Shown one piece after another: positions 4,339-25,017 of a stretch of DNA of 44,578 bases. The stretch's first letter is position 1. Every line of letters starts with the position of its first letter. The position numbers were made by a program, and so were the translations under genes. The stretch comes from a virus. Taxonomy: Duplodnaviria; Heunggongvirae; Uroviricota; Caudoviricetes. Location of the stretch: the IMG/VR virus record IMGVR_UViG_2728369181_000006, positions 1 to 44,578 of that record; one strand, 5' to 3'. The notes under the pieces were generated by a model. It had not been told where the DNA came from and ran no database searches. It was given only the letters and a program-made list of their open reading frames with translations.

Positions 4339-5217
4339 TCAGTAGTTATGTACTGAAGGAGGCAATTCTTTATTCTTAAGTCTCATCCATGCGGAAAGAT
4401 TCGTTGGTCCGTCTGGCTCATTGATATCAACATCTCGTGTGTGGTTGATTAAAACGTCTCTCGCCATTCCGATAACATACGAGAACTCATGACCGTAGTC
4501 GTAGCATCTGCCGGAATAGTTCGATTGAATTTGTTTTAATGCCGGATACAGTTCGCGGAATAATGCCTGTGAGCGGTTGGCATAATCCCATAACCATACA
4601 AGGCTGTTTGCTTCTTTTGCAGAAAGCTCGTTGGTTTTCTTCTCTTGTTTGCCGATGAATTCGCCTTCAAGCACTACCCTGTGGATGTACTCTACGGCTT
4701 GCGGGATTTGTTCAATTGAAAGTTCATCAATGCTGTCAATACCAAAACGCTGATGAACCATATTGTATGCATCGTCATAGCGAAGTCCTTTCTTTCCTAC
4801 CAGCATGTTTACTGCATCGCGTAGCGGTGTTCTTTCCTCAACAGTGGTTTTCTTTCCTTTTACATACTCGCCATGTTTGCGAATTGAAGGCAGAACTTCT
4901 GCTGTTACCCACTTGCGGAATTTGTGCGGGACCGAACCTTTATTGACTGCATCGCGGCAGCGCAGAACCAATGTATACATACCTGATTCGCTCACAATGC
5001 TTAGATTCTGCTCACCACCAAGGGTGTAACTTAAAGTTACTCCCTTTTCATCGTCATCAAGTGCAGTAAGCGCCTTGCGTGAGTTAGTCAGGGTTAAAGC
5101 ATCACAAACATCTTTTGCTACAAACCACGGCTCACCGCACTTGTTGATGACGCGGATTTCACTGTCGCCGAATTTGAAGATGGTGAAATCGTTTTGTGCC
5201 TTTGCTATACTTTTCAT
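4339..5217 (-). CDS. ant: Antirepressor Ant (Bro-N/AntA N-terminal domain)
   Basis: Bro-N-like N-terminus ([11 protein letters not shown]...[14 protein letters not shown]); position directly downstream of arc as in P22 immI. Start placed at ATG 5217 with AGGAAA RBS; the ORF-track start at 5283 is GTG. Confidence 0.75.
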
Positions 5218-5218
5218 G

Positions 5219-5290
5219 TCAATATTTCCTAATCCGATTTGTTGATACCGAAGCCCTGACTGTTCCCGCAGTTGGGGCTTCACTGTTTTG
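5219..5290 (+). ncRNA. sar: Candidate Sar-like antisense RNA covering the ant ribosome-binding region
   Basis: Plus-strand hairpin (gaagccc...gggcttc, about 5250-5282) followed by a T-rich tract, about 70 nt downstream of a weak promoter-like -10 tatact at 5206-5211. Geometry matches P22 sar, which is antisense to the ant RBS. Confidence 0.3.
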
Positions 5291-5716: not shown

Positions 5717-5971
5717 ATGGCAAAAGGTGTGTCAATTTCTCCAACTACGGTAAGAATCCCTGAATCTTTACGCGAGGCTCTTGCTGTCAGAGCATCAAAA
5801 AATGGTCGCTCTGTTAACTCCGAGATCGTCATGATTTTGCAAGCCGCGATTGATGAAGAAAAATCACCAAGATCAATAGAAGGTTTTGCTCAACAAGAAT
5901 CTGAAAAATTTAGGGAGGCTCTTCTTAAGACTCTCAGCAGCATGTACGGAGAAGATAAAAAACCCACCTGA
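5717..5971 (+). CDS. mnt: Mnt-like ribbon-helix-helix repressor, 84 aa
   Basis: Arc/Mnt family motif NGRSVNSEIV; size and divergent arrangement with arc-ant as in P22 immI. Confidence 0.75.
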   Translation: MAKGVSISPTTVRIPESLREALAVRASKNGRSVNSEIVMILQAAIDEEKSPRSIEGFAQQESEKFREALLKTLSSMYGEDKKPT

Positions 5972-5985
5972 CGGTGGGTTTTATT
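5957..5985. terminator. Bidirectional rho-independent terminator
   Basis: Sequence aaaaaa cccacc tgac ggtggg ttttatt; serves convergent mnt (+) and the 140-aa gene (-). Confidence 0.65.
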
Positions 5986-6406
5986 AGTGCTTGTATAGCT
6001 TGAACTCCCTGTCGAGCCATAAGACATAAAAAGTGGCTCCTATCTTATAACCAACCATAGGTGCCTTAGAGCAAAATCTGAACGCAATGAAATCCACATC
6101 TTGAGTAACATGCTTAGGAATCGGAGCCTTTATCGCGTTTCTGGCAATTTTTTCCGTCCCAAGCCCGTGTTTATCAGATTTTCGTATCTCATCCCATGAC
6201 ATCTGACTTAACCTGAACAGCCTATCTGCAAATGCTGCCTTTTCATGCTTTTGGCAGCAATCTAGGCAATACCCCTTTTGTAGGTATCTAAGAGAAAATA
6301 CAGGCGGACTTTTGTCTACATCATGAGATTCGTGATGGATAGAGAGGCCAACAGTAGCAGAGCTCTCTTTATCCCTCTGTTTTATTCTTCCCTTAACTCT
6401 AGGCAT
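5984..6406 (-). CDS. Hypothetical 140-aa protein, candidate toxin partner of the Panacea-domain protein
   Basis: ATG 5 nt after the stop of the upstream Panacea-domain gene; basic protein with C-terminus ...GYKIGATFYVLWLDREFKLYKH loosely reminiscent of RelE/ParE-fold toxins. No confident family assignment. Confidence 0.45.
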   Translation of the reverse strand: MPRVKGRIKQRDKESSATVGLSIHHESHDVDKSPPVFSLRYLQKGYCLDCCQKHEKAAFADRLFRLSQMSWDEIRKSDKHGLGTEKIARNAIKAPIPKHVTQDVDFIAFRFCSKAPMVGYKIGATFYVLWLDREFKLYKH

Positions 6407-6411
6407 ACACG

Positions 6412-6861
6412 TCAGTTAATTAACGTTTTGAAAAAACCTTTCATAGAATCAAGTGTGATTTCTTGGCTAACCGCACCCTCAATGTAAGCATCTTTCCATG
6501 GCTGCTCTTCGTGAGTCATATTGCGCAGTTTCCAGGCAGAAAACTGACCATAAACTTTATACACCTCATCCAGCAATTCAATTTCATCTTCACTGAATTT
6601 TTTAGCGTCAAAGTTTTCTGGCGCAAGTAAAGCTCCGTTACCACAGTCCCTATATTTACGATACAATTCAGGAACTACTGGCCCATGCATCCAGGCTTCA
6701 ATTTTCTCATTAAATAGCGGCTTACCCAGAAGAACCAGAGAAAACCCTTGGGCATAATACGTCAACTTCTGAATTTTTAGGTTAGAGATAATGTCGCCAC
6801 TTTCTTCATCGCAATGCGCCAAGAAGTAGTCGGCGACATCAAAACAAGTGAGCATAAACAT
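6412..6861 (-). CDS. Panacea-domain (DUF4065, SocA/PanA-like) putative antitoxin, 149 aa
   Basis: Motif KIQKLTYYAQGFSLVLLGKPLF...EAWMHGPVVPELYRKY matches the DUF4065 signature as recalled; ATG start with GGAGGT RBS. Confidence 0.7.
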   Translation of the reverse strand: MFMLTCFDVADYFLAHCDEESGDIISNLKIQKLTYYAQGFSLVLLGKPLFNEKIEAWMHGPVVPELYRKYRDCGNGALLAPENFDAKKFSEDEIELLDEVYKVYGQFSAWKLRNMTHEEQPWKDAYIEGAVSQEITLDSMKGFFKTLIN

Positions 6862-9573: not shown

Positions 9574-10859
9574 TACTGCCCTCCGAGATATTTGCTAATT
9601 AATTCGTCATCGGACAATTGCTGTTGAGGTTGGCTATCGCCATAACTTGAGGAAAGAAAACGTTTTGCCGCAGAGTTCAATGATTCACCCTTCTTAACAT
9701 CCATCCCCATGATGTTTCGGTTGCGATCAGATTGTCCTGGGCTGCCATTTGCACTCATCCACTCTGACCTAAACTCGTTGAACTTCGCGTTATTACTTTC
9801 CATTTTTGCCATACCCCTTAACCATCGAGCCATGACCATTGGATTATCCGTTTCGCTTGGAATGCCTTTCCTTGCAAACTCAATATCCTTATCTGATGCA
9901 GGGCCGGGAGGGAGAAGCTTTGTTGCCTGCGCATTGGCTAGTTGGTTGAATCTAATCCGCATATCTCGGAGGTAGTTATCTTGCCCCGTAAGCTTAGTGA
10001 ACATATTTTCAGCGTTACCGAACAAACCAGGAGTTGGCTTCTCCTTCTCAAGCGTGTCAGCAAGCGTTGTCATTGAATCGGCAGCATTACGACTAGCTGC
10101 CGCATCACCTGCTGATTTTTCTATAGCCTTTTCCATGTTCACGGATAGTTTTGGCGCAGCATTAATAAGTTCATCGGCCTTCTTTTGTGCCTGTTGTACT
10201 TCAAAACCGAATTTCTGCTTATCAAGTGCCAGTCTTTCTGCTGCAAGTCCGTGTCCAGTCATTGCTGACTGATAGGAAAGGTTTTGCCCTCTCGCCTGAA
10301 GTGCCTCGCCAGCCTGATTGCTACGGATTGTCTCATTAAGCTGATCGCGTTGATGCTGCACATCAAACTGTTTATCCATAGGCAGAGTGGCAAGGCGGCT
10401 AGCATTTAACAGGCTATTAAACCTGCCCGGATCCTGTTGATAAAGCTGCCATGCATCATCCTTACTCACACCCAGACTTAATAATGCTGCGCTGTTGCTA
10501 TTCAGAGCATTTGCAATTTCATTTGGATTTCCTGTAGATGCAGCAATTGATATTTTATTTAAAGCTGAATTAACAAATGCTGAATGCTCAGCACTCTGAA
10601 TACCTAACTCCTGTTGTATAGCCTGAGTAAACTCAGGGAATTTTCGACGCAGAGAAGCTATTTGTTCAGGAGGCGTTTCATTCATAGCTTTATAGAATTC
10701 CTGCTGTCTGGCATCCTGTCGAATAGCCCGCTGGTTATCTATTCCCTGCGCTATACCTTGCTGTGTCGTGGCAAAGGTTTGAGCTTCTTTCAATCCTTCC
10801 AGTCTGAAGTCAGGAACTAATGACATCAGATTTAATGGGCTGCCAATACTATAAGCCAT
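9573..10859 (-). CDS. Ejection protein, P22 gp20-like, 428 aa
   Basis: Synteny gp7-gp20-gp16; translationally coupled overlaps (ATGA/TAATG). Confidence 0.7.
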
Positions 10860-11572
10860 CAGAATAATCCTCCTAAAAATCCACCAAACATGTTGGTGAA
10901 AGAGTTAACATCCTGAGATGCACCATTACCTAATGATGAGTTAGCGCTGGCTGCCGTCTGCCATGGTAAGGCTTTTTGCGCCCCCCTGATTTGCCCTGAT
11001 TCACCTATAAGTGACGTTAAAACATTTGAATTATTTGCCGATGCCGCACTACCCATACCAGCAGCAGTTAACCCAACATTCGTTAACCCCATTAACTGGT
11101 TATACATATCCTGCTGCTCTGCTGTCTTCATGGAAAGATATTGCTGGCCTAATTGAGGGGCAATAGAAGCCAGCATATTTCCAGTAGCCGTTGACCCAAG
11201 ACCGCCTGTAGCTTCAGCAGATGCAAGCCCACTATAACGAGCCTGATCATTTAGGAGTTTGAATTCTTGCGAATTAAAGTAGTCTCCTAATAATTTGTTT
11301 CGATCAATAGGAATGCCAGCAAGCTTTTGCAAACGCGGTAAAGCTGATTCGCCAACTTCACGATAAGGTTTTCCAAACGCTATCTGCTGCTGATACATTT
11401 GCTCCTGAAGGTTTTGCTGCCTGTCATTAGCTTTTTTGTACTCTTTGCTCGCAGAATTGGCACCTATTCCACCAAGTATCCCGCTGGCAGCATTTGTTAC
11501 ACCTTTAATTGCTCCGCCCATGATATTCCCCCGGATCACGCCACATAATAAAAAAGGCGCTTTCGCGCCCAT
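10859..11572 (-). CDS. Ejection protein, P22 gp7-like (alternative start at 11521)
   Basis: Synteny; Gly/Ala-rich N-terminus; overlaps the upstream gp14-like gene. Confidence 0.65.
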   Translation of the reverse strand: MGAKAPFLLCGVIRGNIMGGAIKGVTNAASGILGGIGANSASKEYKKANDRQQNLQEQMYQQQIAFGKPYREVGESALPRLQKLAGIPIDRNKLLGDYFNSQEFKLLNDQARYSGLASAEATGGLGSTATGNMLASIAPQLGQQYLSMKTAEQQDMYNQLMGLTNVGLTAAGMGSAASANNSNVLTSLIGESGQIRGAQKALPWQTAASANSSLGNGASQDVNSFTNMFGGFLGGLF

Positions 11573-11894
11573 CTACAGTCCTTAGGGTTTGTAACGTTCG
11601 CTCACCAAACCCCATTCTCCTGGCATAGTTGCATACTCTTGGCCTGTCGCTGATTATTACCGCCCGCAATTTATGGTGGCCAAACATTTTAAGAATTGAT
11701 TCACCAGCTTTTCTGCACTCACTCCATCTTCGTTTATCCATTGCAACATGGATGTCATAGAAGCCTGATTGTTTCACTATGGCAAATACGCAACACCCAT
11801 CCCACAAATAATAGTTAGCCCCCGGATCAATCCACGAGCTAACTCCCCACAATCTCATTAATTGTGAGCCAGTAATAGCGTCTATGTTTGTCAT
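11505..11894 (-). CDS. P22 gp14-like virion assembly protein, 129 aa
   Basis: Position between tail needle and gp7 as in P22/Sf6; ATGA overlap with needle gene. Confidence 0.5.
11549..11570 (-). terminator. Terminator-like hairpin embedded in the 3' end of the gp14-like gene
   Basis: Minus strand ggcgc gaaa gcgcc followed by UUUUUUAUU. Confidence 0.3.
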
Positions 11895-12844
11895 TGTTCC
11901 GCAATGATTTTGATGGTTGTGGCGGTAAACGCCGCACCATTCGACTGAATGGTTAACGTACTGCCATTTGTGGCAAGAAAGCCGTCTTTATCCACGCTGA
12001 AAAACGTAGCTAACAGGATGTTATCGGTTGTTGTCGCCGCATTACGACTGCTGACCAACGTGTCAGGAACAGAGCCGGAAAAGGTTAGCTGCATTGACCT
12101 GTTGGCTGTTCCGCTGGGCCACGTCCCGACGATCGACAGCTTGAAGAACAAGGTTTTGTTCTCGTTGAACACAACCATCTTGTTGTTAACGGTGTCGAAG
12201 AATGGTGCCAACGTGCCGGATGACTGCGTGAGCGTTTTCAGCAGGCTAACAAGGTTGGTAGGCGCTGTCGGGATGGTTACAGATACTCCTGAGTAAACAA
12301 CCTCTGATTTCTTGCGCGTGGTGGCATACTCAAGCGCAGATATTCTTGTTGAGTGATCACCAACTGTGCTTTGTAGCGTCGAAATACTTCCTTCTGCCGT
12401 TGTGAGCCTGGTATCAAGTGCGTCGATATCGGTTGTATTCTGAGTTATGCGCGCATCATGGTTTGCTAACTCAGATTCATTGGCAGCAATTCGCGTCTCG
12501 TGATCAGCCAGCTCTGTTTCAGCAGCCGTAATCCTTGTTTCATGATCTGCAAGAGTGCTTTCCGCTGCTGCAATTCTATGTTCATGATTGATGAGAGTTG
12601 CTTCAGCAGCTTCAATTCTGGATTCATGGTCTGCAAGGGTGACATCCTGCTCATCATTCTTCACCTGTGCATCATAAGCCCCCTTCCCTGCTTCGTTGGC
12701 CTTATTCGCCACGTTACCAACATCAGTGCCCTGTGCGATAACGTAAAGCAGATACGACTGCGAGAAGATATTGCGTGGAAGAACTGATGTATCGAGCCGC
12801 GTAGCCTGGATGATTACTGGCTCATTGAGATTCGAATCAGCCAT
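11891..12844 (-). CDS. Tail needle protein (P22 gp26-like) with heptad coiled-coil repeats and C-terminal knob domain, 317 aa
   Basis: N-terminus [43 protein letters not shown] matches P22 gp26; repeated LADHETRI-type heptads; an extra ~140-aa C-terminal domain absent from P22 gp26. Confidence 0.85.
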
Positions 12845-14262
12845 TACTCAATCCTTATCTGGCAGCCAGACAGAGTGACAGGTGACTTCGTGATAACTCG
12901 CAATTTGAAGCCGACATTTTTCCTGATGCGCCCAACTCGCTTCCACAAAACGCGTTTGTCGTAAACGAACGGTTCATTCTGCTCAATCATCTGCTCACGA
13001 CCGTAATTTATGCCGTCAGTGGTTGCAGAGAGGAACAGGCGGTCAGCGTACTGCGCAACGCCAGTTGACGATTCAACCTCAAAGTCGAAAACTCTGGCGT
13101 TATCCGCTTTGAACAACGGAGTAAACAGCAGGTGTTCCTGTTGCTTGTCGTACTGACTGCTGATGTCGAATTGCAATTTCCCGGTCACGGACTCCAGCTT
13201 ATCGCCGCACGTTATCTGATTGCCTTCGTAAATGAAGTCGATAGCGCGGTACACATCATCATACAGTCCTGTTTTCAGCACGCACCATTGCGGACCATTG
13301 GCGCTTGAAGATGCGTCGTACACAAGTACGTGGCGCGGAAGGTGGATAATCAGCAACTCATGCGCATCAAATCGCAGAGACTCCATCACGCCATCAGCCA
13401 GTTCATCAGCAGTGTAGGAGCGGAGGATTTTCTCAATGCTCGCGCTGGCGATTGGTGACACCTGACCGGAGCCGATGATGTATACAGACGGCGCACCCGT
13501 TGCCGGATTGCTGATGAACGCATAGGAATCAGCAAACGGCGTTTTGCAGTAAGTTCCGGCAATGCCTTTCTGCACCATCAGCGATGGCTGTGCGACATAC
13601 AAAGCGGCACCAACGGTGGTTGCCCCAGTCAGGGAGAAATATTCAATCGTCGATGAACCAAAGCAGACGATGAAGTCTCGCCATGTTCCGATGCCGATGA
13701 TGCCGTCAGGCTGCGATTCTGCGCGATATTGTGCGCTGTAGCGGTCAGGGTGTGATTCGTCTTCAAGGTCAGTGATAAACCATGAATCAGTGCCGTCTTT
13801 TGACCACGCATAACGCCCACGTAAGCGCGTAATGTCGCGTACTGAGCCTAACTCATACTGCGTGAATCCGCTGTCTGTAGGCCAGTTTGAGACGGTTTTA
13901 ACCGTGCCATCATAGCGATACTCGACCAGTTGCCCGTTAACGCCAACTGCCTGTGATGTCCTACCATGCGCCATTGATACGCGACCACTTCCGGCAACAT
14001 CACCGACTTCACTTTCGCCTTTGTAGAGCTTGCCACCACACACACGATAAACAGCATTCTGCGCCATGTTGTACTCGACGCCTCGAGATACACCGTTCAC
14101 ATCAGAACGTTTGGCAATGCCCGGGAATGAGCGAAGATATCCGCTGCTGTTGAGGATTTCTTTGGGTGTAGCCAACATATTCACTGGCAGATAGTCGATA
14201 TAGTCGGCGTTTCTAAAGTCTTTGCCGACACCTTTCATAAGCGGAAGTTGCTGAATCGGCAT
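12844..14262 (-). CDS. Tail accessory protein, P22 gp10-like, 472 aa
   Basis: Same length as P22 gp10; synteny gp4-gp10-gp26. Confidence 0.75.
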
Positions 14263-14740
14263 TTATTCGCTCCCGTTATCGCAAGGTTCCTTCCGGTGGA
14301 AGTAATTCCAACCGTTCCACTTCGCCAACTGATTACCGCTACCAACAGGCATACGGTTTGGATAACCGGACTTACATTTAGCAGCTTTTGCTCTGTCCAT
14401 TGCAGACAGTTTGACGAGTCGCTCTTTCCCGTATCTGGCAGTGGTTATAAGTTTTGCTGACGCTTCCAGCGCATAATCTGGAGCAATGCGGCAGGCAAGG
14501 TTGAAAATGACGGCATTTATAGCGTTATTTGATAAGCCGTGCTCATCGCCCGGATCTGGAGCGACATCTGCATCAGCAAAAATGTAGCCAACGTTGATAC
14601 CAGGTGACGCATCACCGCCAAGCCATTCAGCCATCATCATTTCAAGGTCGTTGACGCCGTCTTCCATAGACTGCGGTTCGACATCGGTTAACGTGGCATT
14701 TGATGCCACACCGAGCTTACGTAATGCCGCAAGGACTAAA

Positions 14741-14763
<23 letters not shown>
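14263..14763 (-). CDS. Tail accessory protein, P22 gp4-like, 166 aa
   Basis: [21 protein letters not shown]...LTDVEPQSM closely matches the P22 gp4 N-terminus; the ORF-track N-terminal SQ-repeat extension is not part of the protein. Confidence 0.85.
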
Positions 14764-14995
<232 letters not shown>

Positions 14996-15009
14996 GCTTG
15001 TCTCCAGAT

Positions 15010-15031
15010 AAAAAAGGGAGCCGAAGCTCCC
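15010..15031 (-). terminator. Rho-independent terminator immediately after the coat protein gene
   Basis: Minus strand gggagc uucg gcuccc followed by UUUUUUAU. Confidence 0.55.
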
Positions 15032-15039
15032 TCTGGTTA

Positions 15040-16335
15040 TCACGCGGTCTGGTTAGGCAGACCAACACCAATTGCCTCTGGTCGTACAGCACATGCTGAA
15101 TACCACACAGCAATACGGCACTTACCAGACAGAGTGTTGATATCACCCTGCGTTGCGAAGATGCCGTTAACACCAATGCCAGGAATGCTGAAGGAAGACG
15201 TTTTCATGCCAGCAAACAGTTCATGGGTTACCGGGATAGGCTGAGACAGCAGTCGGATTGAGTCATCAGCCCAGAACACGTTAGCTGTGGTTGTTGCCAC
15301 GTTCAGAACGTTTACCGGAGTGGTATCAGCAAGAGAGGTGTTTACGTTAGCGTAAGCCTTCTCTTCTTTTGTCAGTGACGCGTCATCCAGTGCAATCGGC
15401 TTCGGCGTGATTTCGATGTGAGTACCATCGATCACACGGGTGATTGAGAAAGTCGCATCATCAGTCAGCACGTTCTTCGCCATCTGAGACAGGAATTTCA
15501 CACCAGTGAAGCTGATTTTGTCGCCGCGCTTAAACCCGGTGGTGGAGGATACGGTCACCGTTGCAACACGGTTGTCGACGTTCTCTTTGTTACCATCGGT
15601 ATCAAGGGTGTATGCCTGAGGCTTAAACTTCTGCGCACCAGAAACAGTTACACCAGTAGCGGTTGACTTGGTAACTGCCGGAAGTTTCGGTGAGCGAAGA
15701 ATTTCATCAAAGCCAGCAATCTGACGCTGAATAGTACCGTTGCGATATGCTTCTTCAGGAACGCGCCCGAAGATGTCACCATCTACCAGGTTGCGGCCTG
15801 CTTTGCGGTAATCGTCAGGGTTCAGGAAGTAACTGATGCCCATATCGCGGTTTAGCTCACGGGAGAACATCAGGCGCTCTGCATCAGACACAAAATCCCA
15901 GCCAGACAGGCCAGTAGATGGACCAATTGCTCGGGTATCGTGAACAACAAGTGAGCCCATTTCAGTTGCCTGTTTGGCAATTGCTGACTCAATGTTATTC
16001 GCCAGTTTTTTAGCGGATGCCTGGATGCGGCGACGGTAAGAACGCTCATCACGCAGGTCATCTGCACGAAGCTCGAAGAAATCGTTATCCGGATCGCCCA
16101 TGTTGCATTTCACGGAGAGTTCCAGAATCCCTGTTGCGTTGCCAGTTAAATCCCAGCCAGTCTGGGTTGGCGCTTCCTGCTCAACAGGCATCCACACGGT
16201 GTTGCTTGAACGCTGCATGGATTCTGCCGGAGGGGTGTATTTTGTCACTTTGGACGCCATTGGCGTCAGGTTCTGGACGGTTTCGATGATTTCATCCAGA
16301 GCATACGTGACCAGTTGACCTTCATTTAATGCCAT
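15040..16335 (-). CDS. Major coat protein, P22 gp5-like, 431 aa
   Basis: Size and position after scaffold; P22-like module. Confidence 0.85.
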
Positions 16336-17246
16336 TATCGAATTCCTTTATTCAGTTGCGCCTTGAGCTTGCGGTATGTCTCTACATCCCCTTTGTTTGC
16401 TGCCGCTTCCATCTGCTTTTCAATCGCAGATATATTTGCAGCAACAGCGTGTCCCTGAATGGGTTCATCAGGTAGCGGGGCTTCTGAAACAGGTTTGGCT
16501 CGAGGCTTGAGAGTTAAACGTTCTGACAGTCGAGTGAGTTCAATCAGCGCGGATTGCCCGTCCATCGCCAGCAACTGGCGTGTCTTCTCAGGATTAGCAC
16601 CAAGGTGATACATTAGAGCAGCGGATTTCTCCGGGAAGAGGCGCATGATGTCGGCACCGACTGCTGGCGGCACCAGTTGCATGAATGCGTCCTCTTTCTC
16701 CTGATAGTCAGGGATATTGAGCTTTTCCGCTGCGTCGTAGTGCTTACGGGCTGCCTCGACGTATTGCGCTGATTGCTGGGTGAACTCCTGAGTTTTGCGA
16801 CCCTGCTCGGCGACAGCCTGGCTTCGTGCGTCCATAGCCTTGATCTGCCATTCACTGTTTGCCTGCTGGAAGGCAGCCAGTGCGCGGCTCTGGTCATAGT
16901 CGTACTTAGCCAGTGCATCTTCGGAAAGGTAATCGTTAGGGTCTGGTTGTTTTGGTAACTCAGGGTTCACCCGCAGGTGCTCCGGCAACTCTCCACGCTT
17001 AACCGCTTCCATCTGCTGCTCAAGCTCACGCTGGCGTTTGCGTTCGATGCGGCGACGGGCAAATTCAGCATTAGTTGCCGGGTCTTGTTTTGGTTTCTCA
17101 TCGTCTTTCAGGACAATCTCAAAGCCTTCTTCCTGACCTGCGCTGTCGTTGGCATTATCGACAACTAAGCCATCAGCAGATGCCGCTGCATGATTGCCGG
17201 GCAGGGTTAATTCTTCAGAAGCCTGAATGTCGGTGGTTTGGTCCAT
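16335..17246 (-). CDS. Scaffolding protein, P22 gp8-like, 303 aa
   Basis: Same length as P22 gp8; acidic, helix-rich; between portal and coat. Confidence 0.8.
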
Positions 17247-17259
17247 GATTAACTCTCTC

Positions 17260-19425
17260 TTATTGAGGTGTCTCGGCTACTCCGCCGGAGGGGATTTGAA
17301 CTTGACGCATAAGATTCGCGAAATCCATGCGTTGTGAATGAGTCTGGTCTGCATCTTTAAGAAGCAGCTCAGCGTTAGCACGAGCATCTTTGCTGCGCTG
17401 TTGCTGGAATTGACCTACGAGCTTGAGGTACTCACGCAGTTCTGCCTGCTTGTCGAGGTCCATATTGTTGAAGATTTCTGCAATCTTCGCGGCGTTGAGT
17501 TGGTTTTGGGCTTCAACCTTGGCGGCTTCAACCTGAATCTGCGCCTGTTGGTTCTCTGCCTTGAGCAATTCAGCCTGACCTTGCAGAAGGATACCCTGCG
17601 CCTGAATTTGCTCTGCTGATGGCTGCTGCGGCTGTTGTTGTGCCTGCTGCACCATCTCCATCTCTTCAGGTGTTTCTGGTTTCTTCAGCCCCATCATCAC
17701 CAGTTGCTTGTTCGCGTACTCTCGCATCATCTCGACGCCTTTACCGTCAAGCAGCGTGAAGTATTGCAGCATCAGCATCTGGAACTCTGGAGTACCTTGC
17801 GGAACCTTGGTGAGCAACTCCTGAATCTCTGCGCGGTTCTGTTCCTTCATACTCTGGAAGGATGGTCCTACGTCTGTATAGCACTCATAGCGACCGCGAA
17901 TGTCGTTGAGTGTGACCACATTGCCGGACTGGTAATCGACAACTTGCGCATAGAGTTGAATGTCTTTCTCGCTTCCATCTTCAAGTGTCAGCGTTACATG
18001 ACGAGGAACGTCATAAATATCGTTGACCATTGAGGCATAAATCTCGCCATCACGTCGCATTGCGGTAGCCAGGTTATCCTGAAACACGTATGTCTCAAGG
18101 TCTGCCCGCATGTTAAGTTGATTGACGGTATCGAAAGCGACCTGACCATTTGCCGCCTGCGCATCCACGCCAAGACTAGCCACTTCTTTCACTGCGTTGG
18201 TGGCAGCCTCAAGCATGTAAGCGTTGGCTTGCGGCACTTCAGGGTTTTCCATGTAGGAGATTGGACCAATCGGCAGGTCGTTACCGTTTTCATCAGTCCT
18301 GTTCTGGAGATAGTACGGATAGTCATCATTTCCACCGTACATGTATTCGTAGCCTTCGATTTGCTCAGGGAAGAAGGTCGGTTTCTTCTTCGGTGAACGA
18401 GCAACAATATCGGCGTTGAATGACATGATCATGTTACGAAGGCGTTGACCGTCTTTCGTCAGCCTTACCACTCCTTCGTAGCACTCCTTGTCACCAGCGA
18501 ATGACCATTCGCCATACACTGGAACGATTGGAATATGCTCTCCGGCTATCTTCTCGCGGTCTTTCAGTATCTGCGTGCAGGTGATGATCGACTTATACAC
18601 ACGCCGACGCTTCACCTTGCGCTCTGCTACCTTAATGAATCCACGATTAGCCAGGTCGTCGATGACGTCTTTGATATCCTGCTGGTAATAGCTGACCGGC
18701 TCACCTGTCAGCGGGTCGCGGTAGATGAAGACCTTCTCTTTCTTCTCTTCGACCTCGTAATACTCAGCGACGTAGACGACATCATTCGATACCCACGGAA
18801 ACAGCCATGTGTCGTTCGGATTCTGGAAAGATGGCAGGGTGTCCGGATCAATACCGTAATCCTCTGCGAACTCTTTCCAGCCATTGCGTGACAAGGCGTT
18901 AATCACCGTGCAGTGCTTAGCGTCGCTCTTATCCATCTGCTTGCTATTGGCGTCCCATATGACGTGTGAGCAGGCTTCATGGATTGGAAGGCGTCGAATT
19001 ACCTGATTGTTGCTTGTTGGATCGTTGTCTTCGTACTGCGTGACCAGACGCCATGCACCAACTCCAGACTCTATCTGCTCACGAACGCCAACGTTAACGG
19101 CAATCTTTGCCGTGTTATGGCGCATATCAGTACGATACATCCCCATCAACACATCGGCTGCATCAGGATTAGCGCCGTCTTTGGGTCGGAAGAGAACGTC
19201 GATAGGGTTCCGGCGCATCTCTGCGACCAGTTTCCTGACCACCGGGCGAACAACATCGAATTGTCCGCGATATTGCAGGGTGGTGTAGTTTGATAGCCAG
19301 TCATCCCATTGCGACACTCGGCTAAAATACAGGTCATTTGTCGCCTCGGTTCTGGCTTCATCGCTCGCCATCCAGTCCGCGTCAAACTTACACAGAATGG
19401 AGTTGAGTCTGTTTTCGTCGGCCAT
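17260..19425 (-). CDS. Portal protein, P22 gp1-like, 721 aa
   Basis: Near-collinear match to P22 portal ([11 protein letters not shown]...[11 protein letters not shown]...[18 protein letters not shown]...). Confidence 0.9.
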
Positions 19426-20873
19426 TTAAGTTCTCCGTGCGATGGGCCTGATTGGGGCTGGTGTTTTCTTCTCTTTTGGCTTGTTAATATCGCCATAACG
19501 CTTAGCGTATCGGCGCATCATGTATGCATAGCGTGTGGCATCAAGAAGGTCATCGCGGGTTTTTGCTATACGCCCTTTCTCGTCACGATGGTAATAGTTA
19601 AATTCGTCGAACCAGTCTCGAAGGCCACGGAATACTTTAAATTTACCCAGCTTCATCAGGTCGTACAGTTCGAACAGGCCTGCCTCAACTGATCTAGAAC
19701 CATCAGGCCATTGCGCTGACTCATGAAGCATCTGAAACCCAGCTTCGTGGTAGTACTGCTTCTGCTGAAGTCCTGACCCTTTTTCTGTTTGTAATCCATC
19801 TTGCGGCCATGCTGTGGGTACTTTTAATGCCCATGACTTAACTGAAGACCATGCCTCTGCTGGAGATGTCTGGCTCGCTTTCCATGCTCTGGTCACATAG
19901 TACGTTTCGTTGTCGTTATCGATAACTAATTGCATGTGAGCCTGCGGGTGATCCCAGCCAAAGTCCATGCCATCAATCACCATCCAGTGGGGAGGTATCG
20001 GGAATGGATCACAGGTGATTGTGTCTTCGCTAAAGTCATAAATACGACCATGACCAAGCATAGGAATACCCTTCGTTCGCATGTCTCGTTGATGAGGAGG
20101 AAATGATGAGAGCAAATCCTCTTTCACCTTATCACTAAGGTGTGGAGCATCATCCCAGCCAACATTCATGCACGTTTGCGCCGCAGAGGGGTTATCCATG
20201 AATCCAATAACCAGTTCTGTACGTCCGTTTTCCGGTGTAAATGTCAGTATCCCACGACCACCACGACCTTTGTCTCCGGTAGCTGTACGGGTAAGAACCT
20301 GCGGGTAGATAGTTTCATCTTTTGGCTCTTCGTCGATATGAAACCAGTCAACACTGTCACCCATTAGTGCATGCTGACCTTGCGAGTAAGACCAGAACTG
20401 AATTTTCGAAAGCCGACCTGACTTATGCCTGATATAAGCAGAACGTACTGCATTTGGCGTACCAGTCATTGGTTCTGTATCAACAATCAAATCTCCAGGT
20501 ATCAGACCACCTTCCCAGCCGTCATCTGTTTTTCTGCCCAGCAACGGTGTTTGCAAAAGGTCTCTAATCTTTTCCCCTGAGTAACCTAGACACCAGATTA
20601 GCGGGGCGTGATCAAACTTATACCCCCCCATCCATCAGGGTAGTCACCTATTGCATGGATAGCGTCGATATAGGTGGCGGTATCAGTCTTGCCAACACGG
20701 TTTGCAGCAATTAATGCAACCTGAGAGTATTTACTACTTAGCGAGATGAACTTCTTTTGCCACTCGTATCTGGTATCGAAATAAGTGCGATACCTGTACA
20801 GATGCGAGCGACGTGCTTTTTCCTCCAGCAAGCGTAATAACTCAAGCTTCTGCTCCCGATCCAGATTGTGCAT
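19426..20873 (-). pseudogene. Terminase large subunit, interrupted by a frameshift in a homopolymer run (two overlapping ORFs, 91 aa and 401 aa)
   Basis: Walker A motif ANRVGKTDT in the N-terminal ORF (20598-20873); the reading frame continues in another frame from 20631 (…DGWGG / YKFDHAPLIW…); the junction lies in a C7 (minus-strand G7) run at 20623-20629; one extra G would restore a ~482-aa ORF. Confidence 0.7.
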
Positions 20874-22041: not shown

Positions 22042-22521
22042 TTAAATGATTTGCCAGTCTTCAGCCATCAGGTCGCCAATGGATGGAACCCATGTAGCAA
22101 GGCGGTTCTGTGAGTTTTTCAATACAAGCGTGTCATTGAAAGTTGGCTCGCCAACATATTCGCCAAAGCCATAACCCAACGCAGACGCTAATTTTTCCCC
22201 TTTCACGAGATAAACAAACTGGTCTTTCCCATTCCATCCTACCCGCTGCAAACTTTTGCCCTGTTTTAACGCTTCCATGGCCAGACCGAAACTTAGTCCT
22301 GATACAGGACGATAAGCCTTTTCGAATACTTCTTTTGGACTCCAGCTAACGTAGCCATCAAAGCGATCGGTGTTAGGTTTTCCGCCATCCAGATATTCAA
22401 CCAGATAGCCTTCGTCCTCGCCGTTTTCTCCGGCAGGAAGCTGCCAGCCACGAAAATCGTTATATGCCTGTCTCGTCATCGGAAAGGCGTTAATCAGTTT
22501 TACGCCAATATGCTGGGTCAT
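22042..22521 (-). CDS. DUF2829-like (Tad2-type) protein, 159 aa, possible anti-defence factor
   Basis: C-terminal half LKQGKSLQRVGWNGKDQFVYLVKG...WVPSIGDLMAEDWQII resembles the DUF2829 family as recalled; located in the Rz-to-terminase cargo locus. Confidence 0.45.
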   Translation of the reverse strand: MTQHIGVKLINAFPMTRQAYNDFRGWQLPAGENGEDEGYLVEYLDGGKPNTDRFDGYVSWSPKEVFEKAYRPVSGLSFGLAMEALKQGKSLQRVGWNGKDQFVYLVKGEKLASALGYGFGEYVGEPTFNDTLVLKNSQNRLATWVPSIGDLMAEDWQII

Positions 22522-22545: not shown

Positions 22546-22568
22546 AAAAAACCCCGCGAATGCGAGGC
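22546..22568 (-). terminator. Putative terminator downstream of the lysis cassette
   Basis: Minus strand ccucgc auuc gcgggg (one G-U pair) followed by UUUUUUAUU. Confidence 0.35.
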
Positions 22569-22742
22569 TAAATCCTGGTGTTTGTGATGACTGGCCCTTA
22601 TCTCAACGCAGCCCCTTACTGCGTGCCAGATGCTCAATATCAAGCATCAGCAATGAGATGTTTAATCTGGATTCACTCCAGAAGTGATCACCACCCTGTC
22701 TACAGAGCCAGATGTGAAGGATGATGAGTAAAATTATCGCTA

Positions 22743-23653: not shown

Positions 23654-23960
23654 CTTCTACTCCGGCTTTTTTAGCAGCGAAGCGTTTGATAAGCGAACCA
23701 ATCGAGTCAGTACCGATGTAGCCGATGAACACGCTCGTTATATAAGCGAGATTGCTACTTAGTCCGGCGAAGTCGAGAAGGTCACGAATGAACCAGGCGA
23801 TAATGGCGCACATCGTTGCGTCGATTACTGTTTTTGTAAACGCACCGCCATTATATCTGCCGCGAAGGTACGCCATTGCAAACGCAAGGATTGCCCCGAT
23901 GCCTTGTTCCTTTGCCGCGAGAATGGCGGCTAACAGGTCATGTTTTTCTGGCATCTTCAT
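23637..23960 (-). CDS. S: Holin S (lambda S107/S105 dual-start)
   Basis: [39 protein letters not shown]... matches lambda S as recalled; Met1-Lys2-Met3 dual-start motif present. Confidence 0.9.
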
Positions 23961-24255
23961 GTCTTACCCCCAATAAGGGGATTTGCTCTATTTAATTAGG
24001 AATAAGGTCGATTACTGATAGAACAAATCCAGGCTACTGTGTTTAGTAATCAGATTTGTTCGTGACCGATATGCACGGGCAAAACGGCAGGAGGTTGTTA
24101 GCGCAGCCTCTTGCCACCCGCCTTCACGAAGCCAGCCATTGCGCTGGTTTTCTTTTATGCAAAGCACACCGCACCGTAGCCACAGCGGATAAGGTGATTA
24201 TTTTTGTCTGTCTGGTATTTGGTTTGATGTGCTTTCAGAAAGGCCGTGCTTAAAA

Positions 24256-24293
24256 CGCAAAAAGCCCCGAGCTATTAACTCAGGGCTTTATTT
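24256..24293 (-). terminator. tR'-like terminator about 50 nt downstream of pR'
   Basis: Minus strand gcccugag...cucggggc hairpin followed by UUUUUGCGUUUU. Confidence 0.5.
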
Positions 24294-24322
24294 AACGAGT
24301 GCATTTATCCATCGTTGGGTCA

Positions 24323-24351
24323 AATTTACCCAACTTTATTCAAAAAGTCAA
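24323..24351 (-). promoter_or_regulatory. Late promoter pR' (with qut region)
   Basis: Minus strand TTGACT, 17 bp, TAAATT; matches lambda pR' as recalled; immediately downstream of Q. Confidence 0.7.
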
Positions 24352-24393
24352 CATCATGCCGTAAAGATGTTGCCATCCGTGGCAATCATGCCG

Positions 24394-25017
24394 CTAACGT
24401 GTGACCGCATTCAAAATGTTGTCTGCGATTGACTCTTCTTTGTGGCATTGCACCACCAGAGCGTCATACAGTGGCTTAACAGTGCGTGACCAGGTGGGTT
24501 GAGTAAGGTTTGGGATTAGCATCGTTACAGCGCGATATGCGGCGCTTGCTGGCATTCTTGAATAGCCGACACCTTTGCATCTTCCGCATTCTTTCTCGAC
24601 AACTCTCCCCCACCGTTCTGTTTTGGCAATATCAACGGCCCGGCCAGTACCGTGACAATCTCTGCATCTTGCGCCCGGCGTCGCGGCACTACGGCAATAA
24701 TCCGCATAAGCGAATGTTGCGAGCACTTGCAGTACCTTTGCCTTAGTATTTCCTTCAAGCTTTGCAACGCCACGGTATTTCCCCGATACCTTGTGTGCAA
24801 ATTGCATCAGATAGTTGATAGCCTTTTGTTTGTCGTTCTGGCTGAGTTCATGCTTACCGCAGAATGCAGCCATTCCGAATCCGGCTTGTGATTGCGCCAT
24901 CCCCATAGCAGCCATCACATCAGTACCGGAAAGAGAGTCAGAAGCCGTGGCCCGTGGTGAGTCGCTCATCATCGGGCTTTTTGGCGAATGAAATTTAGCT
25001 ACGCTTTCGAGTCTCAT
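24394..25017 (-). CDS. Q: Late antiterminator Q (lambda-type), 207 aa
   Basis: Near-identical to lambda Q as recalled ([44 protein letters not shown]...). Confidence 0.9.

Follow-up and report, generated by a model that had tools for sequence, protein, structure and literature searches.

A stem-loop directly past the major capsid gene is already known from several phages, being annotated in P22, L and HK97 and having an analog in lambda. The curated P22 record (BK000583) carries a stem-loop directly past gene 5 and itself remarks on the similar location of the lambda and HK97 stem-loops, and the phage L cII-101 record has a terminator annotated at the matching site past its coat gene. In the HK97 record a putative terminator (5192..5213) lies 7 nt past the major head gene (gene 5), where the sequence reads GGGCGGG-GAAA-CCCGCCC-UUUU, and others flank the major tail gene; past gene E of lambda the sequence is UGGCCC-UUCG-GGGCCA-UUGUUUCUCU. 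The P22 late operon is served by a single late promoter, and phages L and P22 diverge at the end of gene 5 (PMC8022706). For the phage L element two roles have been proposed, either partial termination or the arrest of spurious transcripts that are not under gp23/gp24 antitermination (PMC8022706). A search of the literature for RNA data from P22-like or lambda late operons that span the capsid-gene hairpin gave nothing usable.

Two other systems bear on what such an element might do. In T7, the incomplete terminator T-phi lies directly past gene 10, which encodes the major capsid protein, and capsid mRNA exceeds the downstream mRNA. The balancing of T7 expression by inefficient terminators is cited in an ONT-cappable-seq preprint. 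T-phi acts on T7 RNA polymerase and its efficiency has been measured, whereas the element described here would meet the host polymerase together with Q and is known from its sequence. Intercistronic stem-loops, such as the REP element in malE-malF and those of malEFG and other operons, stabilise the mRNA upstream of them. Like the present element, REP-type sequences are stable hairpins at the 3' end of a more highly expressed upstream cistron, but they have no U-tract and do not terminate, whereas here the U-tract is conserved.

The DNA analysed, referred to as the window, is the complete 44,578-nucleotide stretch of IMG/VR record IMGVR_UViG_2728369181_000006. It represents a P22-like E. coli prophage whose late genes, including that for the coat protein, lie on the minus strand. 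The features at the end of the coat gene are the following:

15040..16335, minus strand: coat (major capsid) gene, 431 codons including the stop; Pfam P22_CoatProtein, E 2.8e-166
15013..15034, minus strand: hairpin 1, AGAGGGAGC / UUCG / GCUCCCUUU, recognised from sequence, fold, relatives and covariation
15015..15008, minus strand: U-tract UUUUUUAU, directly 3' of the GC core of hairpin 1
14741..15005, minus strand: next cistron, an 84-aa ORF with an (EP)n repeat; full-length match to phrog_1175, E 4.8e-37

The coat gene ends in a double in-frame stop, TGA (15042..15040) followed by TAA (15039..15037), and the coding strand continues in the order GCG TGA TAA CC AGAGGGAGC UUCG GCUCCCUUU UUUAU CUGGAGACAAGC AUG. 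The GC core of hairpin 1 is formed by GGGAGC (15031..15026), the loop UUCG (15025..15022) and GCUCCC (15021..15016), and is closed by a C(UUCG)G tetraloop. The stem is lengthened by AGA (15034..15032), which pairs with the first three U residues to give nine pairs, six in the core and three in the extension. With its UUUAU tail the element covers 15034..15008, starting 5 nt 3' of the TGA-TAA stops. In a 61-nt context it folds at -18.9 kcal/mol (z = -2.26), and the 6-bp core by itself is worth -10.8 kcal/mol, a value taken from the identical core hairpin in the loci L098 and L099. Intrinsic terminators combine a GC-rich stem of about 5-10 bp and a short loop with a U-tract directly 3' of the stem on the transcribed strand, here UUUUUUAU, and judged by this structure hairpin 1 is a terminator-type element of the canonical intrinsic (Rho-independent) kind. 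It sits in the untranslated spacer past the stop codon, directly after the major capsid gene and ahead of the head-completion genes, but its distance from the stop is only 5-8 nt, 5 nt to the foot of the stem and 8 nt to the GC core. The original prediction of a GC stem and U-run between the coat stop and the next ribosome binding site is borne out, since the GC core and UUUUUUAU are followed by GGAG, and the positions that it gave, 15010-15031, are exactly those of the core hairpin with its T6 run. A bidirectional terminator, as in the phage L annotation, was rejected for the window, the plus-strand tail being TCTGGTTA and not called by the scan. Pairing of the hairpin foot with the downstream Shine-Dalgarno sequence (CCAGA/UCUGG) was also rejected, as it is not conserved among relatives.

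With P22 and L the window shares a stem-loop 5-8 nt past the coat stop and before a small orf69/orf186-type gene, together with the hairpin architecture, a homologous coat gene and a single-promoter antiterminated late operon. The coat protein has 73% amino acid identity to P22 gp5 and 99% to the coat proteins of phages Dewey, IME10 and CurroJimenez, of which Dewey and IME10 have the same hairpin. The stem of the window, GGGAGC/GCUCCC, is longer than the GGGGC/GCCCC of P22 and L by one compensatory G-C to A-U pair. Moreover, its U6 is unbroken and makes a better terminator on paper than the UUUCUUUAU of P22, the U-tracts of lambda, P22 and L all being interrupted. The gene that follows differs from that in P22 and L, being phrog_1175 with its EP repeat. 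In HK97 and lambda, as in the window, a Q-dependent late operon contains a GC hairpin whose tetraloop is UUCG or GAAA and which has a T-rich tail. Their head-gene modules differ, the coat-protein search having missed the major capsid genes of both, and their hairpins are analogous by position, without sequence homology to that of the window.

The phrog_1175 gene begins directly beyond hairpin 1, with its Shine-Dalgarno sequence GGAG at 15005..15002 and ATG at 14995. Just 3' of hairpin 1, at about 15010-15016, there is a mosaic junction. In loci L004-L083, relatives that do not differ in coat gene or hairpin have one or the other of two unrelated genes next to it, each starting right past GCTCCCTTTT. 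Within the phrog_1175 gene a perfect hexanucleotide repeat, GAGCCA on the coding strand (14811-14850, 6.7 copies), encodes the (EP)n tract, and close IMG/VR relatives have between 0-1 and 13 copies of it, with a protein of 74 to 100 aa. The gp4 ORF that follows (14263-14856, minus strand, 197 aa) is annotated at the same length in phage Dewey. Its Pfam and PHROG matches start at residue 32-33, the first 30 or so codons crossing the hexamer repeat in another frame (QSQSQS...). The ORF is probably over-extended, with the true start likely to be near 14760, overlapping the end of the 84-aa ORF as in P22.

The post-coat stem-loop is conserved across the family with its structure maintained. Among 69 close IMG/VR relatives the stem of hairpin 1 is invariant, and variation is seen in the loop (TTCG, TTCT, TTAG) and in the T-run (T5-T7, TTTTCT, GTTTTT). 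Further afield, 11 of 12 phages with P22-type coat proteins (24-99% coat identity) have a GC hairpin with a T-rich tail directly past the coat stop, the sole exception being Ralstonia phage Firinga; the stem sequences differ in the distant Sortsne, Kc166B, AH02 and a Manatee Spring virus. A prophage set of 36 loci from different species was assembled by means of a four-sequence coat alignment, a nine-sequence one being too divergent. A terminator-like hairpin past the coat stop is present at 33 of these loci, starting between -1 and 21 nt from the stop (median 7), and a T-rich tail is kept in 33/36. Prophages L113 and L116 retain the hairpin and have lost the T-run, and one further locus has no hairpin altogether. 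The element lies within 25 nt of the coat stop in 11/12 phages and 33/36 prophages. The rest of the sense strand in the same 315 kb gives a background of 1.06e-4 hits per nt, or 0.0069 per 65-nt window, and the single post-coat 65-nt window contains half of all sense-strand hits; the enrichment corresponds to a binomial P of 3e-68, which is nominal and ignores relatedness. Covariation was scored over six stem pairs in an in-register alignment of 31 distinct sequences. In this alignment 95% of cells are paired, three of the six pairs show double (compensatory) changes, and the score was reached by none of 500 shuffles. Among the compensatory changes are an exchange of G-C for A-U in the GGGAGC group, of which the window is a member, and one of C-G for U-A in a prophage of Xenorhabdus. 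As judged from these comparisons, hairpin 1 is clearly under selection across P22-type head modules.

A chance inverted repeat without function would agree with a loose consensus scan, which found 23 sites in 19 kb where 17 are expected and is not discriminating. A strict scan, with a minimum of 5 G-C pairs and of 6 T residues per 8 nt, speaks against this. Along the 19.4 kb of late-operon sense strand it returned four sites (22569, 15033, 11570 and 5981), where 100 dinucleotide shuffles lead one to expect 0.06 +/- 0.24, and with the positional enrichment and the covariation it leaves the chance explanation refuted. The elements that frame hairpin 1 within the operon are:

24394..25017, minus strand: Q antiterminator gene; Pfam Antiterm, E 1.8e-57, 206/207 aa identical to lambda Q
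24252..24351, minus strand: PR'/qut and short leader; TTGACT at 24351, 95.9% DNA identity to lambda 43886-44609
22550..22569, minus strand: terminator-like hairpin inside the late operon, past the lysis genes and ahead of a Tad2-like ORF
5959..5982, minus strand: terminator-like hairpin past the accessory ORFs that follow gene 16, ahead of the immI/ant region

Canonical terminator-type sequences punctuate the late operon at about 24270, 22569, 15034, 11570 and 5982. The Tad2-like (Thoeris anti-defence 2) ORF, at 22042-22521 (minus strand) between the lysis cassette and the small terminase gene, is preceded by the strong terminator-like hairpin at 22569..22550, a moron-like arrangement inside the late operon. 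Towards its far end lie an ORF with a SocA/Panacea antitoxin domain (6412..6861, minus strand) and a 140-aa ORF (5984..6406), followed by the hairpin at 5982..5959. A P22-type sar antisense RNA (Rfam RF00262, 63.7 bits; 5219..5284, plus strand) marks the immI/ant region. This was the sole Rfam hit at the gathering threshold over the whole window, with neither hairpin 1 nor that at 11570 (hairpin 2) matched, and at E <= 1 the 11400-15200 region gave no match.

The organisation upstream is that of a Q-antiterminated late operon, with Q, PR'/qut and a promoter-proximal terminator preceding the late genes. The short leader ends in a hairpin and T-run (24289..24252), presumed to be tR'. The 6S leader of lambda has here been replaced by a much shorter one, and similarity to lambda returns upstream of the holin gene (window 23900-25017). 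Pfam identifies among the late genes those for portal (17260..19425), scaffold (16335..17246), gp4, gp10, an Sf6-type tail needle and gp7. The large terminase (TerL) gene is split into ORFs of 91 aa (20598-20873) and 401 aa (19426-20631), both on the minus strand, by a single-base difference in a G-run at about 20630, where the window has G7; E. coli PapM-32-1 contains a 99.9%-identical prophage in which the run is G8 and the 482-aa TerL is intact. The G7 reflects either an error in sequencing or a frameshift that inactivates the gene and may be prone to slippage.

This context constrains what hairpin 1 can do. Lambda Q forms a nozzle on the RNA-exit channel and precludes formation of terminator hairpins (PMC9388147), so genuine late transcription should largely ignore hairpin 1. 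The essential genes from gp4 through to the tailspike are all downstream of it, and with only 12 nt from the U-tract to the ATG there is no space for a promoter; read-through is therefore required. Moreover, at 8-9 bp from a stop codon the lambda terminator tR2 was repressed almost completely in E. coli in vivo, and it attained its maximum of about 0.9 only beyond 30 bp, the terminating ribosome blocking the folding of the hairpin (PMC4824070). All 33 homologous prophage hairpins fall within this repressed-to-intermediate zone, and since tR2 near a stop codon is almost fully repressed, real attenuation may be negligible. The portal and terminase genes, whose products are needed in few copies, precede hairpin 1 on a shared transcript. 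Most of the stoichiometry must therefore be determined at translation initiation, and a terminator past the coat gene cannot set it by itself. The original prediction, that attenuation at this site sets high scaffold and coat against lower downstream expression, thus survives in part. It has the anatomy right, the element is selected, and partial termination has been published for phage L (PMC8022706), which makes it the first of the two published hypotheses. Its scope is limited by Q antitermination, ribosome proximity and the upstream position of low-copy genes, and the operon context argues that attenuation is at most partial.

A second hairpin lies further along the operon, in the following setting:

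11505..11894, minus strand: 129-aa gene at the gp14 position; full-length match to phrog_17333, E 1.1e-71, overlapping the gp7 start by 17 nt
11546..11570, minus strand: hairpin 2, GGGCGC / GAAA / GCGCCU, then UUUUUAUUA; codons 109-116, G R E S A F F I
10859..11521, minus strand: gp7-like DNA ejection protein gene; Pfam P22_gp7, phrog_598, PGAP start, ATG at 11521

The core of hairpin 2 (11570..11555) has five GC pairs, one G-U pair and a GAAA loop, and runs into a T6 run (11555..11550) of which the first U closes the stem as the G-U pair, giving both the stem and the U-tract of an intrinsic terminator. The original prediction had a similar hairpin at 11549-11570 at the end of the gp14-like gene. 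The hairpin is present as described, but it is intragenic, lying within the ORF 41 nt before the stop codon and 34 nt upstream of the gp7 ATG. An intergenic position past gp14 was rejected in that the ORF reads through the hairpin and a 129-aa product is supported by PGAP, by PHROG and by homologue C-termini. In E. coli HB37 and OkiPb01711 this ORF is likewise called by PGAP, with gp7 starting at 11521, and the C-terminus beyond the hairpin, GRSN*, is conserved in distant homologues. By BLASTP the 129-aa protein has no similarity to P22 gp14. The gp14-position gene and the gp7 N-terminus (11300-11900) constitute a rare module, with no DNA match in 50,697 phage records and found in only 2 of 5,426 complete E. 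coli genomes, whereas the flanking coat module is common.

Hairpin 2 is present in all 26 IMG/VR homologues examined (L139-L164, 67-100% identity) and recurs in Citrobacter, Rahnella and Pantoea prophages, with compensatory variants in the latter two genera. One variant, GGGAGC...GCUCCU, keeps the pairing at the price of changing R110 to S and A113 to S, and another, GGGUGC, changes R110 to C and gives a U-G pair. Synonymous sites were analysed in 27 unique ORF sequences, comparing codons 109-116 with the other 80 degenerate conserved codons. Mean synonymous-codon entropy is 0.05 bit in the hairpin and 1.17 bit elsewhere (Mann-Whitney p = 1.6e-5), and the two phenylalanine codons are TTT TTT in 27/27 sequences, never TTC, whereas Phe96 is TTT in 11 and TTC in 16. 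The strict scan and this suppression of synonymous change reject a chance origin, and the synonymous constraint with the compensatory amino acid changes is the one mildly new result. The hairpin is absent from Murrayvirus, Kosakonia and Aeromonas homologues (29-45% identity) and from the gp14 of P22, L and Dewey. It is therefore not an ancestral trait of gp14-position genes but a clade-specific nucleic-acid element within coding sequence.

Other uses of this site were considered and found no support. A programmed frameshift would need the hairpin downstream of the T-run, where it is in fact upstream, together with a conserved extended product, and the +1 frame stays open for only 17 codons ahead of the normal gp7 ATG, for which a separate Shine-Dalgarno sequence is present. 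An alternative start at the upstream ATG 11572 is missing in relatives that have GAC instead of GAT. For terminators in the later part of a coding region, translation reduces termination to about 40% or abolishes it (PMC4824070), so hairpin 2, if it terminates, would do so mainly on untranslated or non-antiterminated RNA. It is probably a second element of the hairpin 1 type, placed ahead of the ejection-protein genes and expected to be gated by translation even more strongly. We tentatively suggest, as a possibility short of a probable one, that both hairpins are conditional terminators, silent when the polymerase is Q-loaded and ribosome-coupled and active otherwise, with hairpin 2 a selected intragenic intrinsic terminator, kept by purifying selection at synonymous sites and by compensating amino acid replacements, that polices RNA synthesis lacking translation or antitermination before the ejection genes.

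For hairpin 1 itself, the explanation that we judge on balance to be probable is a deliberately leaky intrinsic terminator and 3'-end hairpin, which would modestly raise coat-proximal mRNA and stop polymerases that lack Q or a ribosome. It would mark the 3' boundary of the procapsid block (terminase, portal, scaffold and coat) within a single Q-antiterminated operon. During lytic growth most polymerases, carrying a lambda-type Q, are expected to pass it, and a ribosome terminating at the coat stop would cover the foot of its stem; because both allow read-through, hairpin 1 may be leaky by design. The minority of stopped transcripts, along with decay intermediates trimmed back to the hairpin, would have a UUCG-capped 3' end that protects coat-proximal mRNA, leaving scaffold and coat message modestly above that of the head-completion and ejection genes. 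A polymerase without Q, or without a trailing ribosome, would terminate efficiently. The structure of hairpin 1, its position, its conservation with covariation, the Q/PR' setting and the lack of space for an intergenic promoter are shown by the sequences; that termination or stabilisation takes place there, and the size of the effect, we infer. Against a leaky terminator is the observation that hairpin 2 does not follow the gene of an abundant protein. A rival is that the internal terminators act mainly as insulators, stopping non-Q polymerases that leak through tR' or initiate spuriously in the prophage, with little effect on late transcription. Production of late proteins in lysogens, or prematurely, would thereby be avoided, the membrane-active ejection proteins being an example. 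Such a role was proposed for phage L by Casjens and co-authors (PMC8022706). It fits with the terminators that punctuate the operon, with hairpin 2 directly ahead of gp7/20/16, with the conserved U-tracts and with the expectation that Q and ribosome proximity would silence the sites for coupled, antiterminated complexes. However, it leaves unexplained why the post-capsid position recurs for the most abundant structural genes in unrelated head modules, in lambda and HK97 and in virulent phages such as Sortsne, and the most dangerous genes, holin and endolysin, are upstream of the terminator sites; as the whole explanation, insulation appears rather unlikely.

The opposite simplification, in which hairpin 1 does not terminate at all and serves as a barrier to 3'-to-5' exonucleases or as a processing boundary that lengthens the half-life of the scaffold-coat message, is less likely still. 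The malEFG intercistronic stem-loops operate in this way, hairpin 1 has the hyperstable C(UUCG)G tetraloop, and the hairpin is conserved more than the U-tract in lambda, P22, L113 and L116, where interrupted U-tracts or loss of the T-run fit a hairpin-only role. A Q-modified polymerase should also not terminate (PMC9388147). Yet a contiguous U-run is kept at 33 of the 36 loci, hairpin 2 preserves its U-tract at synonymous sites and the window has a perfect U6, none of which a decay barrier needs, and this conservation argues for a capacity to terminate. It is most improbable that the GGGGC/GGGAGC-TTCG hairpin is a recombination linker, that is, a shared module-boundary sequence that promotes mosaic exchange, or simply a hitch-hiking by-product. 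The two unrelated genes that begin right past GCTCCCTTTT among close relatives would suit such a role, as would the divergence of L and P22 at the end of gene 5 (PMC8022706), but distant phages have different hairpin sequences at the same place and their stems show compensatory changes, so it is structure that is kept and not sequence identity.

The curators of HK97, P22 and L have annotated the post-capsid feature since 2000-2003, and to this the comparative set now adds clear selection. Q antitermination and the nearby terminating ribosome both constrain the popular view that such elements set stoichiometry by attenuation, and the set assembled here is a ready design for testing the role of terminators within an operon. 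Hairpin 2 is of consequence for annotation in that it does not mark the end of a gene. As a candidate natural translation-gated intragenic terminator it would, if this is true, provide a clean natural example of a conserved element of that kind inside a phage structural gene.
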